From a phage, in the sequence record PZ179880.1: a DNA stretch of 64,000 bases, one strand, 5' to 3'. Position numbers and translations under genes: made by a program. Positions 24,292-45,348 of the stretch are shown piece by piece; the stretch's first letter is position 1; the number at the start of each line of letters is the position of its first letter. The notes under the pieces were generated by a model. It searched no databases. It had not been told where the DNA came from and was given only the letters and a program-made list of their open reading frames with translations.

Positions 24292-24492
24292 TCATTTTGA
24301 ATGCTCTATAATTAATTTTAAGGCTTCTTCATGCACCTTACCTAATTGTATATGTCCAGTTTTAATTGTGTAAGCTTTGTGGAGCTGATTAGATAGGAGC
24401 TCGTATGTGAGCTCCTTGTCATAATTTTTAAATAGCTGGTCAATACGTTTCTTGTGGGCTTTCTTAAGTTGACGTTTATTTAAACGAGCCAT
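24292..24492 (-). CDS. Hypothetical basic protein (66 aa)
   Basis: TAATG-coupled to gene 56 stop. Confidence 0.45.
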   Translation of the reverse strand: MARLNKRQLKKAHKKRIDQLFKNYDKELTYELLSNQLHKAYTIKTGHIQLGKVHEEALKLIIEHSK

Positions 24493-25007
24493 TAATAACC
24501 TCGGTCTTGACGAGCGAAGTTTTCAGCATTTTTCAGATAATAAAGTTTAAAGATTTCTTCAGCCGTAAGACCGAGACCTTGGAACATGTTCAGAACGAAA
24601 TGAAGAATATCAATCATTTCGAATTTAATTTCCAACTGGTCTTGTGGAGACAAATCAGTAATCAGAGTTTCACGTCGTTCACCATGTTGAGCTTTCCAAG
24701 GCTTCCATACAGCAGATGCATCTTTTTCACCATTGCTCATACCACCAAGAGAAGTCAATAGTTCGCGGAATTCATCATCAATATAATCTTTCTGATTACG
24801 CAGCCAATCAACAACTTCACCCGCAGTAGCCAAATCATCAGGATGACGGTTATATTCAGGTTTATCTTTAGCTAAACGAACCTGTAGAGATTTCTGCATA
24901 TCAAGCATAACCTGCAGCGGGTCTTTTTCATCACCGAGAATATCCCAGTATTCATTTTGAGCTTTATCAGCGCCTTCGATCAGTTGACTACATTCGTTAA
25001 AGTAAGC
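24492..25007 (-). CDS. 56: dCTP pyrophosphatase gp56 (MazG-like)
   Basis: 171 aa from MAYFNECSQLIEGADKAQNEYWD...; matches T4 gp56 (memory). Confidence 0.9.
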   Translation of the reverse strand, partial: AYFNECSQLIEGADKAQNEYWDILGDEKDPLQVMLDMQKSLQVRLAKDKPEYNRHPDDLATAGEVVDWLRNQKDYIDDEFRELLTSLGGMSNGEKDASAVWKPWKAQHGERRETLITDLSPQDQLEIKFEMIDILHFVLNMFQGLGLTAEEIFKLYYLKNAENFARQDRGY

Positions 25008-25070
25008 CATTATTTTTCCTTTCAATTCATTAATAAGTTAAATAATTATATCATTTGAGTATGTAAGCAA

Positions 25071-26410
<1,340 letters not shown>

Positions 26411-30563: not shown

Positions 30564-30908
30564 TTAAAAGAATTTAAATTTTTTCTTTGACCTTTTATTA
30601 AATGCATCTTGCAGTTGCATTGTAATACATTTTTCTACATGAGGAGCTAACTCAGCTTTTCTTTCTTGGTCAAGAACAGCAAAGTCCATTACGACTTTTC
30701 CATCAACCCAATCTAATTTTGTCACATACACAATGTGTGTAGAACCATCTTCTAGTTTAATGACAATCTCCTGGATAACATTTTCCATAGCAGATTTAAT
30801 TATCTTAAGAGATTCATTAAAAAGACGTTCTTTTCTTTCTTCTTCCCCCTCCGAAGAGGGGGATTCGTCGATAATTTCTAGATCTAAATCTAAATCATCT
30901 TTATTCAT
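30564..30908 (-). CDS. 40: gp40 head-assembly protein
   Basis: Position between 41 and uvsX; acidic N-terminus; start set at first ATG (track used GTG at 30926). Confidence 0.6.
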   Translation of the reverse strand: MNKDDLDLDLEIIDESPSSEGEEERKERLFNESLKIIKSAMENVIQEIVIKLEDGSTHIVYVTKLDWVDGKVVMDFAVLDQERKAELAPHVEKCITMQLQDAFNKRSKKKFKFF

Positions 30909-32082
30909 TAAATTCTTCCATATCACTTAACTGATCTAGGTCAGTTTCTAAATCAGCTGCTGATTTGTTTTTACTTTCTGGAGATTTAAATTTTTCAACC
31001 TTTGAGTTAATCAATTCATCAACTTCAGCTTCAACAATTTCATTACTATCAATAGCACCTAACTGATAAGCACGTTTAATAGCATCTCGGAATGGTTGAT
31101 GCTTAAATAAAGGACCCCAGAATGTAGTGCAATTGGTATCTTTTGCACGCCAAGATTTTTCTTCGCGAATCATCTCACCGGTTTCTTCATCAAGAAATTC
31201 ACGGGCATACCAGCCATTTTTAGGTTTTACTACAAATCCTAATTCTAGAGCCATATCTAACAATCCAGAATAAGGATCGATACCACCGTCAAATTTAACA
31301 TCAATAAAGAATTTACTTTTTTCTTTGACGGTACGAGATTTTTCTACATTTAGAACAAATTGATACCCCTGAAGATCAGAACCATCTTTAATTTGACGTT
31401 TACCGATAATGAATACAGTATCAGCCGAATACATTACGCCTGTACCACCTGTCATCACGGTTTTACTAAACATTTCAATTGTTTCAATTGTATGGTTAAC
31501 CGCAACACATGGAATATTTTTAATGCTAAAATAAGGAGTAACAATACGGAATAATGACTTCAGTGATTTAGCACGAGTCATATCTGCCACAGATTTTTCA
31601 TTCAAGGCATCTTCCGTTTCTTTCTTAGAAGCCATATTACCGATTGAGTCGATGAATACAATAACTTTTTCACCGCGCTCAATAGCTTCAAGCTGATTCA
31701 CCATATCAATTTTCAGTTGTTCAACTGACTGAATTGGCGTATGAATTACTCGTTCCGGGTCAACTCCCATGGATCGCAAATAAGCTGGAGTAATACCAAA
31801 TTCGCTATCATAGAATAGACAAACCGCGTCAGGATATTTGTTCAAATATGCCGCAACCATAGTCAAAGACATATTTGATTTAAAGTGTTTAGAAGGCCCT
31901 GCAAAAATAGTTAAACCAGACTGCATACCGCCATCAATCGCACCAGAAATAGCAATATTCAGCATTGGAATTTTTGTACGGATTACATCCTTTTCATTAA
32001 AGAATTTAGATGTAGTCAGTTCAGCAGTCATTTTAGAAGTGGAAGCTTTAATCAAACGGGATTTTAAATCTGCAATAGACAT
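30901..32082 (-). CDS. uvsX: UvsX recombinase (RecA-like)
   Basis: 393 aa MSIADLKSRLIKASTSK... near-identical to T4 UvsX (memory); Walker A GPSKHFKS. Confidence 0.95.
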   Translation of the reverse strand: MSIADLKSRLIKASTSKMTAELTTSKFFNEKDVIRTKIPMLNIAISGAIDGGMQSGLTIFAGPSKHFKSNMSLTMVAAYLNKYPDAVCLFYDSEFGITPAYLRSMGVDPERVIHTPIQSVEQLKIDMVNQLEAIERGEKVIVFIDSIGNMASKKETEDALNEKSVADMTRAKSLKSLFRIVTPYFSIKNIPCVAVNHTIETIEMFSKTVMTGGTGVMYSADTVFIIGKRQIKDGSDLQGYQFVLNVEKSRTVKEKSKFFIDVKFDGGIDPYSGLLDMALELGFVVKPKNGWYAREFLDEETGEMIREEKSWRAKDTNCTTFWGPLFKHQPFRDAIKRAYQLGAIDSNEIVEAEVDELINSKVEKFKSPESKNKSAADLETDLDQLSDMEEFNE

Positions 32083-32159
32083 TCATTTTTTCCATAGGCA
32101 TCATTATATTTTCCTCACTGGTTAAAGATAGAGTAATTATAACACAATAAATTTAGGCA

Positions 32160-33002
32160 TTAATCAACTGCTATCGGATGAATAGCATTAAACTTATGAA
32201 ATGCTTCTGATTTTTCTTTGCGCGAAACACACATGCGAAGAACCTTTAATGGCTCGTCTTCTTCACCCAACGATTTTCGTTTTTCGATATTAGAAGTTTT
32301 CCAACGAGCTTGCTCTGGAAACTCTCTATTGATTTGCTCAAGCGCTCTATTATGTTTAGAATTACTACGAATTGAACTGCACCCGCCAGGAGCTTGTGCT
32401 TTTCCAGATACAACCAGATATTTGAACAAGGCCAAATGCGGATAACCTTGATTAATTAAATTGAGAAATGCATACATATCTTCGCATAAATCAATTTTTC
32501 CATACCCAATTTGTTCTGTTGTAAGTTTTCCAAGGTCATACCATGTATTCGTGAATCCATATGAATTTTCACGATAATTACCCCAAGATGAAGTAATTTT
32601 AAAAATAGGTAGACGAGCATGGCCATGATAATACCCGCAATCCATGGCATCTTCAACGTATTGAATTAATTCATAGAACTGTTCACGGGTTAATTGATTA
32701 ATTTTATCTACGCAGCGACGATCATCTTTCTTTCGCATTGAACTCATACGAATAGTAGTATCATCATCGATCATCCAAATTCGCTGACCTGCATACATAT
32801 CAGTAATTGCTTTACGAGTTCCAGCAATTCCATTAACATCATCAGGAATAGTTATAATTTTAGCTCTAGACCCATAAGCGTCATAATAAGCTTTTTCTTC
32901 GTGTTTACGTACTACAATATGAGGTTCATAATCAGATGGAAACATATCAAGGGCAGAAACTGCCCCTACGCGTTGATAGCTTGGAATTACGAATTGAATC
33001 AT
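32160..33002 (-). CDS. GT-A fold glycosyltransferase at the beta-gt locus; likely the T2/T6-type beta-glucosyl-HMC alpha-glucosyltransferase
   Basis: 280 aa from first ATG (track start GTG); DxD motif WMIDDDTTI; ATGA-coupled to gene 42 stop. Confidence 0.6.
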   Translation of the reverse strand: MIQFVIPSYQRVGAVSALDMFPSDYEPHIVVRKHEEKAYYDAYGSRAKIITIPDDVNGIAGTRKAITDMYAGQRIWMIDDDTTIRMSSMRKKDDRRCVDKINQLTREQFYELIQYVEDAMDCGYYHGHARLPIFKITSSWGNYRENSYGFTNTWYDLGKLTTEQIGYGKIDLCEDMYAFLNLINQGYPHLALFKYLVVSGKAQAPGGCSSIRSNSKHNRALEQINREFPEQARWKTSNIEKRKSLGEEDEPLKVLRMCVSRKEKSEAFHKFNAIHPIAVD

Positions 33003-33739
33003 TTCCACTCACCGTTATAATCTTTTTTCGCAATATGAGTTTCGCCAGTTTTCCACCAATGGTCAACCAAGTAAAAATGACGGGAATACACATGAAGACT
33101 TCCGACATTCCATATAATGGAACCCGCTTTATACTGGCGAGTTGAATCACCTGCATTCAAATCAGATACTAATTTATCTAGTACGTATTTTTGCCACGCA
33201 TAATCATTGCGGAATCCGAAGACCACGTCATTTGAGCGCATGTTAACTACTGCATTGACTTTCTTATCACGAATCAGATACTGTACTGTATTCGTACACA
33301 TGAAATCTGACATACCATCTTTATTGTAGTCAAACTGCATGGATGGACGAGTATAAATCATGATACCACGCCGAGAATCAGGATTTTGACCAAGTTCAGC
33401 TAAACACATATCATACTGGGCATAGTTATCTTCTGACCAAATAGCCCAACCATAATTCGAGTTAATTTCGCCTTTAGAAGATGCTACCTGCTGCCAAATC
33501 TTTGGTGTTTCACCTGGAATATCTTTAACAAACAAGCTCTTAGATTTATACCATTCAAGTTCGCGCTGAATGTATTCATCATTAAGAGCACCAAAAATAA
33601 ACGGTTCATCTGCTACAAATGATGCGCCAATAATTTCAATAGTTTTAACACCAGTTTTATCAACTACGAAATCTTTTTCTTTTAATGCAAGCCCCAAATG
33701 AAGACGGATTTCTTCAACTGTCATAGAGTCATTAATCAT
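32999..33739 (-). CDS. 42: dCMP hydroxymethylase gp42
   Basis: 246 aa MINDSMTVEEIRLHLGLALKEKDFVVDKTG... matches T4 gp42 (memory). Confidence 0.95.
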   Translation of the reverse strand: MINDSMTVEEIRLHLGLALKEKDFVVDKTGVKTIEIIGASFVADEPFIFGALNDEYIQRELEWYKSKSLFVKDIPGETPKIWQQVASSKGEINSNYGWAIWSEDNYAQYDMCLAELGQNPDSRRGIMIYTRPSMQFDYNKDGMSDFMCTNTVQYLIRDKKVNAVVNMRSNDVVFGFRNDYAWQKYVLDKLVSDLNAGDSTRQYKAGSIIWNVGSLHVYSRHFYLVDHWWKTGETHIAKKDYNGEWK

Positions 33740-33746
33740 TTAAACC

Positions 33747-33896
33747 TCAATTGATACATTCATATTTAACTTGTAACAGTAATAAACTCCACCCTATAAT
33801 AAGCGTTGGAATCATAAGAGGAACCGTTACACTATAGTATATACTTATTATAATCATCAAGATTAAAAGCAACACTGCTATAATTTTGCTTTTCAT
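33747..33896 (-). CDS. Small hydrophobic membrane protein (49 aa), ATGA-coupled to imm stop
   Basis: Hand-translated MKSKIIAVLLLILMIIISIYYSVTVPLMIP... Confidence 0.35.
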   Translation of the reverse strand: MKSKIIAVLLLILMIIISIYYSVTVPLMIPTLIIGWSLLLLQVKYECIN

Positions 33897-34144
33897 TCCT
33901 TCTCTCTGATGATAATTACTTGGTTTTGCTGTGCAGATTTTTTAGTTTCACCCGCAATTGACCAAATAAATGTAATAAACCAACCAATAATTGACCAGTT
34001 AAACAGTAAAGATGTGAAAAAGATTCCTACTGTCGATTTTGACCCACGCATCAAGGCGATGAACCATGGAAGCATGTATATAATAATAGCCAACACGCCT
34101 GAAACTAAAACCATAAAAATTGAACCTGCTACTAAAGTTTCCAT
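33893..34144 (-). CDS. imm: Superinfection immunity protein Imm
   Basis: 83 aa METLVAGSIFMVLVSGVLAIIIYMLPWF... matches T4 Imm (memory). Confidence 0.9.
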   Translation of the reverse strand: METLVAGSIFMVLVSGVLAIIIYMLPWFIALMRGSKSTVGIFFTSLLFNWSIIGWFITFIWSIAGETKKSAQQNQVIIIREKE

Positions 34145-34151
34145 GTTTTCC

Positions 34152-34544
34152 TCACTTAGTCAAATTTTTTACACATGAATTATAAGAATTCACTACATAC
34201 TCCATCGGAGCATTTTTACCAGTACGCCATTGGTAATTATTAGCCCAATTAGCCCAAAGTTCAGCGCAGTAATTTTCAATTTTTTCTTCGCGTGTAATTA
34301 CATCCGAATTACGATATGCTTGAGCAGATTCATCTGGACGAATAGCTTCGTCAAAATTCGCCTGCATTTGTTCTACTGTCTGTTTTGGAGCTTCTTTATA
34401 ACACTTGACATTAGGATTATAAAATTTGCTTGAACAGTTTACAATTTTTCCTACATCAGACTGATTTACTACCGGTCCTTGAGCTACACAACCAGTAAGA
34501 CCTAATGCAATAACCAAAATAGCGATTTTCATTTCATTCTCCAA
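34152..34544 (-). CDS. Putative secreted/lipoprotein (130 aa), imm.1 position
   Basis: Signal peptide with LTGC lipobox; downstream of promoter at 34570-34598. Confidence 0.6.
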   Translation of the reverse strand: MENEMKIAILVIALGLTGCVAQGPVVNQSDVGKIVNCSSKFYNPNVKCYKEAPKQTVEQMQANFDEAIRPDESAQAYRNSDVITREEKIENYCAELWANWANNYQWRTGKNAPMEYVVNSYNSCVKNLTK

Positions 34545-43969: not shown

Positions 43970-44106
43970 ATATCAAGAACCGTCATTGAAATGCAAAATA
44001 AAATTATTGAAATAAACCCATCTGGCGTGCTAAAGAAACCAATCCAGCATGCTCTAGTGAATAGATAAAATGCAAGAAAAAGTATCACATATCCAAGAAA
44101 TATCAT
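43966..44106 (-). CDS. Small hydrophobic membrane protein (46 aa), ATGA-coupled to gene 47 start
   Basis: Hand-translated MIFLGYVILFLAFYLFTRACWIGFF...; GGAG SD. Confidence 0.35.
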   Translation of the reverse strand: MIFLGYVILFLAFYLFTRACWIGFFSTPDGFISIILFCISMTVLDI

Positions 44107-44132
44107 TATATCAAACTCCGTATAAAGCTAAA

Positions 44133-44144
44133 GGGCCGAAGCCC
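44133..44144 (-). terminator. Intercistronic UUCG-tetraloop stem-loop after alpha-gt
   Basis: plus gggccgaagccc, 2 nt past alpha-gt stop. Confidence 0.5.
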
Positions 44145-44145
44145 T

Positions 44146-45348
44146 TTATTTTGTAATAATGTCAAACTGTTCTTTAAAGCAGAAGCTTGAATCTTGATGC
44201 TGATACAAAAATTCATATGCTTTTTCTCGCTCACGGTCATAAAGAGCTCGGTCAGATGACAGTTCTTTAATACGTTCAAACGTTGATTCCATATCATTTT
44301 CATCAAACCAAATGATACCGCTATCATGCGAGGTCAAAGGAGTATTATCAACACGGAATTTTAAATTTTCGCCAGTAGATTTCCAAAATACCGGAATTGT
44401 TCCACATGCACCAAGCTCGAGATGAGTATATTCTAAAGAACGTTGTAGATATTTTTTGTCCAACTTACTCAGCTGATAACCAAATCCGGATTTACTCATG
44501 CGTTCAAGCATTTCGCTATTTACATAACGGTCAAGAATTTGCGTTGGCAAATTAGGAGCAATTTTAATTTGGTCTACTTGATGAAGACGATAATACTCGT
44601 ATGGAATTCCTTTTTCTTTAATAGGAATGAACGCTGGAGAACGTTCCAGACCTTCCATAATAGTACTTAGTCCTGCAGGTTTAAGATGTTTTTCATGAAA
44701 ATCAAACATCTGATAAAAACCTTTCCATGTAGTCGTACGACCAATCCAACGGTTGATATTCATGTTAATTTCAGAAACATCTTTCCAGTAGGTTGATCTA
44801 ACCTTCGCAATATCCATAGGAGGCTGAAAGTTATATACTGTCGGCGCTTCTTCAATATCATCAAACAAAGAAACTGTTTCAGGATACCATTCTTTCATCA
44901 GAACTTTATTAAAATCGCCATTATCAGAATGACTAAAAATAACATCAGCTCGACGAACAGTTTCTTCTAATCCCAAATTTCGGCGCAAAGAAAGAGAAGA
45001 ATGGTCATGTTGATAAACTACAACACGAACCGAAGGTTTAATGTTATCAATAATTTTTTTATAGTTATTAATAGTGTCTTCTTCAACTGAAGTAGCAGGA
45101 ACTGAATTGATAATTAGAATATCACAATCATTTACCAGCTTAAGTGTTTTATCGTATTCTTTTGCCAATAAAACCGGAATTGAAAATGATTTATAATCAT
45201 GCGCACAATTACGAGTAAATGATTTATCTTTAGCATAAACCAAAGTTACTTCATGACCATTTTTAATAAACCAATCACGCTGCTCAAGAGAAAATTTAGT
45301 TACACCGCAACCTTCAAGACCTCGAGCCATAAAAATACATACTTTCAT
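44146..45348 (-). CDS. a-gt: DNA alpha-glucosyltransferase
   Basis: 400 aa; MKVCIFMARGLEGCGVTKFSLEQRDWFIKNGHEV... near-identical to T4 alpha-gt (memory). Confidence 0.95.
   Translation of the reverse strand: MKVCIFMARGLEGCGVTKFSLEQRDWFIKNGHEVTLVYAKDKSFTRNCAHDYKSFSIPVLLAKEYDKTLKLVNDCDILIINSVPATSVEEDTINNYKKIIDNIKPSVRVVVYQHDHSSLSLRRNLGLEETVRRADVIFSHSDNGDFNKVLMKEWYPETVSLFDDIEEAPTVYNFQPPMDIAKVRSTYWKDVSEINMNINRWIGRTTTWKGFYQMFDFHEKHLKPAGLSTIMEGLERSPAFIPIKEKGIPYEYYRLHQVDQIKIAPNLPTQILDRYVNSEMLERMSKSGFGYQLSKLDKKYLQRSLEYTHLELGACGTIPVFWKSTGENLKFRVDNTPLTSHDSGIIWFDENDMESTFERIKELSSDRALYDREREKAYEFLYQHQDSSFCFKEQFDIITK

Follow-up and report, generated by a model that had tools for sequence, protein, structure and literature searches.

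Which glucosyltransferase sits between uvsX and gene 42 in the phage studied here, at the position where T4 has segA and b-gt, and what would it contribute to the modification of the virion DNA? We analyzed this locus in a window of 64 kb (the whole stretch of DNA under study), which belongs to a Tequatrovirus and shares ~98% identity across 24 kb with phages including ECO07P4 and YUEEL01. A preliminary interpretation made from the letters alone (the sequence-only reading) had placed at this beta-gt locus a 280-aa GT-A glycosyltransferase with a DxD motif, assigned it to the T2/T6 beta-glucosyl-HMC-alpha-glucosyltransferase class and predicted the resulting sugar pattern of the DNA. Our analysis leads to the conclusion, to which we assign a probability of about 0.93, that the ORF encodes the T2/T6-type beta-glucosyl-HMC-alpha-glucosyltransferase (ba-gt/ggt, referred to here as ggt), the enzyme adding the second glucose on glucosylated phage DNA. 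It is an already known and annotated gene in its usual place, and nothing reported here changes the current understanding of it.

The ORF is real and lies on the minus strand, which had previously been left unstated. In the ORF listing it extends over 32160..33008, encoding 282 aa from a GTG, with an internal ATG at 33002 that gives 280 aa. The GTG start at 33008 was set aside: T2, EL, Solly, QOTSP and NR1 are all annotated as starting ggt at the ATG, which creates a 4-nt ATGA overlap of the ggt start codon with the stop codon of gene 42; because the same overlap is annotated in these relatives, the start was taken as 33002 (Table 1). This overlap also suggests that ggt may be translationally coupled to the upstream gene 42. 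The product begins with MIQFVIPSYQR, includes WMIDDDTTI and ends in PIAVD. The ORF is present in 479 phage records, 475 of which match 80% or more of its length, with nucleotide identities of 90-99%. Compared with six relatives, ggt shows 28-32 synonymous and 4-9 non-synonymous codon differences, an excess that, judged from the codons, is the signature of purifying selection and marks ggt as a genuine gene and not a frame left open by chance. A scan of the region 30800-34200 for promoters and terminators yielded 15 promoter-like (16.6 expected) and one terminator-like element (1.3 expected), not above shuffled sequence. The gene order uvsX-ggt-42 is the same in the window, T2, T6 and five phages of the Durham collection. 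With segA and b-gt filling this interval in T4, the earlier placement of the ORF at the beta-gt locus was right.

Table 1. Positions in the 64-kb window of ggt, its motifs, its neighbors and further genes of the hmC pathway.
Feature	Position	Strand	Remarks
ba-gt / ggt CDS (280 aa + stop)	32160..33002	minus	T2/T6-type glucosyl-DNA beta-glucosyltransferase, Pfam TAGT family; from ORF, T2/T6 identity, PF20691, PHROG 842
IPSYQR motif, residues 6-11	32970..32987	minus	after first beta-strand; R11 codon 32970-32972; I6, P7, R11 conserved
WMIDDDTTI segment, residues 76-84	32751..32777	minus	DDD = residues 79-81 at 32760-32768, codons GATGATGAT
E174-D175	32478..32483	minus	D175 100% conserved in 152 sequences
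ATGA overlap, ggt start codon / gene 42 stop codon	32999..33002	minus	read from sequence
uvsX recombinase, downstream neighbor of ggt	30901..32082	minus	99.5% identical to T2 UvsX
gene 42, dCMP hydroxymethylase (hmC precursor)	32999..33739	minus	98.4% identical to T2 gp42; likewise annotated in relatives' records
probable gene 56 dCTPase, 172 aa, same hmC pathway	24492..25010	minus	70.9% ungapped identity to annotated dCTP pyrophosphatase of phage EL
alpha-gt, DNA alpha-glucosyltransferase, 400 aa, T2-type allele	44146..45348	minus	PF11440, PHROG 2888

The family assignment of ggt is carried by close homology. Its sequence shares 97.9% identity with the T2 ba-gt/ggt (beta-glucosyl-HMC-alpha-glucosyltransferase) over 280 aa and 97.1% with that of T6 across 280 codons, and it matches PHROG 842, which represents the same enzyme, at 2e-88 with residues 1-275 covered. 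These values bear out the proposed class, and the closest homologs are the T2/T6 enzymes rather than T4 beta-gt or a non-DNA glycosyltransferase. We take the enzyme to be glucosyl-DNA beta-glucosyltransferase, EC 2.4.1.28. When compared with the consensus of related sequences, the window allele carries four private substitutions (T23S, E33K, R92K and V101I), all of them conservative and located at family-variable positions. In Pfam, ggt matches PF20691 (TAGT) with 38.3 bits (gathering cut-off 27.5), residues 3-207 aligning to profile positions 2-205 of 205. TAGT denotes TET-associated glycosyltransferases, most of which adjoin TET/JBP dioxygenases and are presumed to act on 5hmC itself. With this family ggt has in common the full-length profile match and the conserved IPSYxR, DDD, ED and GG..R positions; unlike most of its members, ggt occurs without a TET enzyme, hmC arising via gp42 at the nucleotide level, and its acceptor is the sugar already on the base. 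The T2/T6 ba-gt has been equated with PF20691 TAGT before, with gentiobiosyl-methylcytosine as its product (PMC13216743).

A profile search over 1.84 billion representative proteins returned 2280 clusters at E <= 0.001, and residue conservation was scored in an alignment of 152 divergent relatives from among these. The aspartate triplet is strongly conserved (D79 99%, D80 100%, D81 96%), as are D175 (100%), R11 (99%), I6 (98%) and P7 (93%) as well as G206 (99%), G207 (100%) and R212 (97%). Searching solved structures by sequence recovered no relative of ggt, the sole match being spurious (E = 0.75), and the fold was therefore assigned from a predicted model (AlphaFold, AF2), built after aligning ten full-length relatives, in all of which the DDD is invariant. 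The model, a single Rossmann-like alpha/beta/alpha domain, has a mean pLDDT of 81.3 and a pTM of 0.83, with low-confidence loops at residues 132-149 and 202-206, and places the DDD after strand E74-77. Foldseek returned 92 matches in the PDB at E <= 0.001; all matches listed are glycosyltransferases, and the named families among them all belong to GT-A/GT2 (RmlT, WrtF, the chondroitin polymerase K4CP, TarP, TarS, SpsA and SunS). The similarity is moderate, with E-values of ~4e-6 to 1e-4, probability 1.00, query-normalized TM scores of 0.39-0.52 and 9-15% identity. The modeled fold and the conserved triplet support the earlier call of a GT-A, DxD-type glycosyltransferase. By analogy, the DDD would bind metal and the nucleotide sugar, and general knowledge of GT2 enzymes points to a role of IPSYQR in nucleotide binding. 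As a beta product is formed from UDP-alpha-glucose, ggt must be an inverting enzyme, which fits with most of the best structural matches of the model being inverting enzymes, and D175 is a candidate for the catalytic base of such an inverting GT-A enzyme.

T4 beta-gt occupies the same genomic slot and, like ggt, uses UDP-glucose as donor and forms a beta linkage, but it has a GT-B fold and, unlike ggt, acts on bare 5hmC. At 351 aa it is also the longer of the two, as had been pointed out. We found no detectable similarity between ggt and T4 beta-gt (NP_049658.1), the forced global alignment reaching 14% identity and the best blastp hit E = 3.3 over 8 residues, and no Pfam match of ggt to any beta-gt family. 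A tblastn search for a beta-gt homolog across the whole 64-kb window, outside of which the rest of the genome lies, likewise found none (E > 1). Homology of ggt to T4 beta-gt was rejected on the grounds that the ORF shows no similarity to it and that the window holds no homolog; to our knowledge, no beta-gt or other such glycosyltransferase is known at another position in the genus. While ggt is found in 479 phage records, a T4-type beta-gt is found in 29, so that within the genus the ggt arrangement is the common one and the T4 arrangement the rare one. For annotation, the window phage is to be assigned the common DNA sugar pattern of the T2/T6 type and not that of the T4 type.

The description of ggt as lying next to a T4-like alpha-gt is correct in part only. 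A genuine alpha-gt is encoded in the window, matching the AGT profile PF11440 over positions 1-355 of 355 (E = 1.8e-237, 787.6 bits) and PHROG 2888 at 6.8e-223, but it is 11 kb away, with genes 43, regA, 62, 44, 45, 46 and 47 intervening. Two alpha-gt alleles that are ~8-9% apart can be distinguished, one of the T2 type and the other of a type shared by T4 and T6, whose proteins are 98.8% identical. The window protein shares 99.5% identity with T2 and 100% with both Solly and QOTSP, versus 91.5% with T4 and 91.8% with T6, which by these identities makes it the T2 allele and not the T4/T6 allele. Alpha-gt would supply ggt with its acceptor, alpha-glucosyl-hmC. The dam gene of the window is identical to T2 dam.

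Related phages with measured DNA composition allow this gene pair to be translated into an expected sugar pattern. In wild Tequatrovirus phages carrying alpha-gt and a TAGT gene syntenic to T4 beta-gt, HPLC-MS detected 5hmdC, alpha-glucosyl-hmdC and alpha-gentiobiosyl-hmdC and no beta-glucosyl form (PMC13390438). From this Durham collection we compared Solly, QOTSP, NR1, EL and BGP with the window, leaving out Geo, TB37, CP, Some and EH2. The DNA of Solly, QOTSP and NR1 consists of ~1/3 5hmC and ~2/3 gentiobiosyl-hmC with a trace of alpha-glucosyl-hmC, while EL and BGP show a ratio of ~1:2:2 of 5hmC, alpha-glucosyl- and gentiobiosyl-hmC (PMC13390438). Solly, QOTSP and NR1 share the synteny of the window and are 99.8-100% identical to it in alpha-gt and 98.2-98.6% in ggt (four or five amino acid differences); NR1 differs in lacking dam in the interval from the dCTPase gene to gene 61, where the window has it. 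EL and BGP carry a T4/T6-type alpha-gt allele (91.8-92.0%) and a distinct ggt variant with six substitutions (96.8%). The identities in alpha-gt and ggt place the window in the genotype class of Solly, QOTSP and NR1, and on this genotype these three are the best experimental proxies for the window phage DNA. By analogy with them, the virion DNA of the window phage is predicted to carry ~1/3 bare 5hmC, ~2/3 gentiobiosyl-hmC and little alpha-glucosyl-hmC, resembling T6 and not T2. Measurements of three phages, all in a single paper, underlie this quantitative prediction, and T2, with nearly the same two genes, was reported at only 5% gentiobiosyl-hmC.

We propose the following pathway for the window phage. 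The products of genes 42 and 56 would channel dCMP into hydroxymethyl-dCTP, 5hmC would enter the DNA by replication, and alpha-gt would attach glucose in alpha linkage to some two-thirds to three-quarters of the 5hmC; to this first glucose ggt would then add a second one from UDP-glucose in beta-1,6 linkage, yielding gentiobiosyl-hmC. Since the locus holds no T4-type beta-gt, 5hmC beyond the reach of alpha-gt should stay bare. The last catalytic step is supported by genetics in T6, where deletion of ba-gt leaves only alpha-glucosyl-hmC (PMC11078745), gentiobiosyl-hmC being converted to alpha-glucosyl-hmC at an unchanged total modified fraction (PMC11078745; bioRxiv 10.64898/2026.02.25.707755). 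Together with the LC-MS results on phages sharing the window's genotype, this supports by analogy the reaction of UDP-glucose with alpha-glucosyl-hmC DNA to beta-1,6-glucosyl-alpha-glucosyl-hmC. The sequence of the window allele suggests that it, too, would be active. The combination of alpha-glucosyl and gentiobiosyl hmC expected by the sequence-only reading agrees with the mass spectrometry of relatives, in which beta-glucosyl-hmC is missing (PMC13390438), and with the T6 deletion (PMC11078745), but should be supplemented by ~25-33% of unglucosylated 5hmC.

The T2 and T6 enzymes differ from the window allele at several residues. T2 ggt (AYD82639.1, MH751506) likewise has 280 aa and lies between uvsX and gene 42, with the same ATGA overlap and a 99.5% identical alpha-gt as its partner; it has H11 and S251 in place of R and P in the window, which in turn carries its private S23, K33, K92 and I101. 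All T2 records have H11, while 151 of the 152 family members have arginine at position 11, and of 682 matching records only 8, each from the T2 lineage, contain the N-terminal 40-mer with H11. The T6 ba-gt (MH550421, AP018814), on which the genetic test was performed (PMC11078745), occupies the same locus, differs from the window allele in having N40, G55 and H106 and is paired with a T4-type alpha-gt allele (98.8% identical to T4, 91.8% to the window). Two T6 records show ggt lesions, one having an amber codon at codon 10 and the other a DDD-to-DD deletion. Window ggt is intact at Q10, R11 and the DDD, the three sites altered in T2/T6 stocks.

Several other readings of the locus were weighed against this assignment. 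As ggt sits exactly in the T4 beta-gt slot and belongs to a Pfam family named after enzymes found beside TET/JBP dioxygenases and thought to glycosylate 5hmC directly, it might be a primary DNA glycosyltransferase acting on bare 5hmC and functionally replacing T4 beta-gt. This is very improbable, given that wild Tequatrovirus phages with ggt contain no beta-glucosyl-hmC and keep ~1/3 of their 5hmC bare (PMC13390438), that loss of ba-gt in T6 shifts gentiobiosyl- to alpha-glucosyl-hmC with the total modified fraction constant (PMC11078745; bioRxiv 10.64898/2026.02.25.707755), and that 97-98% identity to the T2/T6 enzymes makes another acceptor very unlikely. Even less credible, to the point of being virtually negligible, is a glycosyltransferase with a non-DNA target such as the host envelope or a protein. 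The solved structures nearest to the ggt model are indeed wall-teichoic-acid and polysaccharide GT2 enzymes, but the resemblance is one of fold at 12-15% identity, the DNA function of the T6 ortholog is genetically demonstrated (PMC11078745), and ggt is embedded with gene 42 of hmC synthesis, its translation apparently being coupled to that of this gene.

A further alternative retains the T2/T6-type assignment but holds that ggt is weak or inactive in the window phage, as it seems to be in some laboratory stocks, which would leave the window phage DNA T2-like and mostly mono-alpha-glucosylated. T2 itself, whose alpha-gt is 99.5% and whose ggt is 97.9% identical to those of the window, has only ~5% gentiobiosyl-hmC (PMC11078745), the two T6 records carry lesions in ggt (the amber codon 10 and DDD-to-DD), and the window allele has its four private substitutions. 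These, however, are conservative changes at family-variable positions; Q10, R11 and the DDD are intact, synonymous changes far exceed non-synonymous ones, and gentiobiosylation reaches ~2/3 in the three phages of this genotype whose DNA was measured (PMC13390438). A weak or inactive enzyme is hence very unlikely, and an active T2/T6-type ggt producing gentiobiosyl-hmC remains the preferred reading.

The sugar pattern does bear on the susceptibility of the phage to restriction, as had been suggested, although this is already documented in the literature. Gentiobiosyl-hmC resists the Brig1 glycosylase in vitro, which requires mono-alpha-glucosyl-hmC, and cannot be stripped by the BapA glucosidase, while GmrSD-family enzymes still cut DNA modified in this way (PMC11078745; PMC13216743; PMC13390438; bioRxiv 10.64898/2026.02.25.707755). 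T6 lacking ba-gt is more sensitive to Brig1 (PMC11078745) and its DNA becomes a substrate of BapA (bioRxiv 10.64898/2026.02.25.707755). Bare 5hmC matters at least as much as the sugar pattern, as phages retaining it are attacked by the 5hmC glycosylase Brig3 (bioRxiv 10.64898/2026.02.25.707755).

The only mildly new point concerns the old difference between T2 and T6, for which the substitution at a nearly invariant residue of the T2 enzyme may offer a simple and testable account. T2 ggt and Solly ggt differ by R11H and P251S only, and their alpha-gt proteins are 99.5% identical; gentiobiosyl-hmC nevertheless amounts to ~5% in T2 (PMC11078745) versus ~67% in Solly (PMC13390438), values that stem from measurements of different eras and methods. 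The alpha-gt allele as determinant of the ratio of mono- to di-glucosylated hmC finds no support, since T2 (5% gentiobiosyl) has the T2 type just as Solly, QOTSP and NR1 (~67%) do, and T6 (72%) has the T4/T6 type, as do EL and BGP (~40%) (PMC13390438). We tentatively suggest, at somewhat below even odds and on correlative grounds, that in T-even phages the ba-gt allele and not the alpha-gt allele sets this ratio, and that the ~5% gentiobiosyl-hmC of T2 results from a hypomorphic R11H private to the T2 laboratory lineage, with P251S perhaps contributing. If true, the window phage, combining the T2 alpha-gt allele with a ba-gt intact at R11, would be a natural test case, expected to have T6-like, mostly gentiobiosylated DNA. 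More generally, a purely correlative pattern suggests that laboratory lineages tend to carry weakened ggt alleles.

We compared the beta-glucosyl-HMC-alpha-glucosyltransferase gene (ba-gt, or ggt) of the window with the copies of T2, T6 and five of the measured Durham phages. At residue 11 the T2 enzyme carries a histidine, while arginine occupies this position in the window, in T6, in these five Durham phages (Solly, QOTSP, NR1, EL and BGP) and in 151 of 152 family members. The 40-residue N-terminus bearing H11 was found in 8 of 682 records, all of the T2 lineage. Furthermore, R11H and P251S are the sole differences between the ggt products of Solly and T2, the latter having H11 and S251. The DNA of phage Solly contains about two-thirds gentiobiosyl-hmC, that of T2 about 5%. 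The rarity of H11, in combination with there being just two differences from Solly, makes R11H a candidate, on sequence comparison, for the cause of the low gentiobiosyl content of T2.

Positions of the features compared, in the window or in the named phage record
Feature	Location	Strand	Remark
T2 ba-gt with H11	MH751506 (L001:7286-8128); AP018813 (L002:7283-8125)		codon 11 = window 32970-32972
T6 ba-gt copies	MH550421 (L003:2138-2980); AP018814 (L005:1635-2474)		lesion in each
GC-rich hairpin, 9 bp, TAGGGGCAG TTT CTGCCCTTG	window 32948-32968	(-)	within ba-gt codons 12-18
Dam DNA adenine methyltransferase, 259 aa	window 25071-25850	(-)	100% identity to T2 Dam
Intergenic gap, 176 nt	window 43970-44145	(-)	between gene 47 and alpha-gt

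The DNA alpha-glucosyltransferase gene, alpha-gt, occurs as two alleles that diverge by about 8-9% at the protein level, one shared by T2, Solly, QOTSP, NR1 and the window (44146-45348), the other by T4, T6, EL and BGP. Among T2, T6 and the five Durham phages, the ratio of mono- to diglucosylated hmC showed no correspondence with the alpha-gt allele. The differences between the alleles are concentrated at residues 47-118 and 221-298, a clustering suggestive of a mosaic or of a patch acquired by recombination. The gap between gene 47 and alpha-gt has the same length in T2 and T6 as in the window, whereas in T4, EL, Solly, BGP and QOTSP a small ORF, 47.1 (141 nt), is annotated there. In the window the gap opens with the GC-rich hairpin AGGGCTTCGGCCCTTT, which has the appearance of a terminator following alpha-gt.

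Each of the two T6 records shows a lesion in ba-gt. In MH550421 codon 10 reads TAG (amber) in place of CAG, for which reason the annotated CDS begins at Met20 and spans 261 aa, while in AP018814 an in-frame loss of 3 nt within the GATGATGAT run reduces the conserved DDD to DD, leaving 279 aa. These lesions could be genuine stock mutations or else sequencing errors. The hairpin within ba-gt lies about 35 nt downstream of the start codon. Two phage records, fPS-2 (Yersinia) and ECML-123-2, list a 'terminator' feature somewhere under the match to ba-gt codons 1-40. A single site of this kind in the terminator scan does not exceed chance expectation.

Amongst the Durham phages, dam is confined to the EL/BGP/Geo group (PMC13390438); NR1, unlike the window, has no dam in the stretch from the dCTPase gene to gene 61.

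Between ba-gt and uvsX the window has, as do T2 and T6, a spacer of just 77 nt (window 32083-32159), where T4 instead harbors the GIY-YIG homing endonuclease gene segA (L004:3571-4236). The alternative genes, T4-type b-gt and ba-gt, adjoin a homing-endonuclease insertion site. In KM607002 (RB55) and KM607003 (RB59), a gene 100% identical to T4-type b-gt is named 'beta-glucosyl-HMC-alpha-glucosyl-transferase'. This label is an annotation mix-up and could mislead surveys of b-gt versus ba-gt that rely on names.
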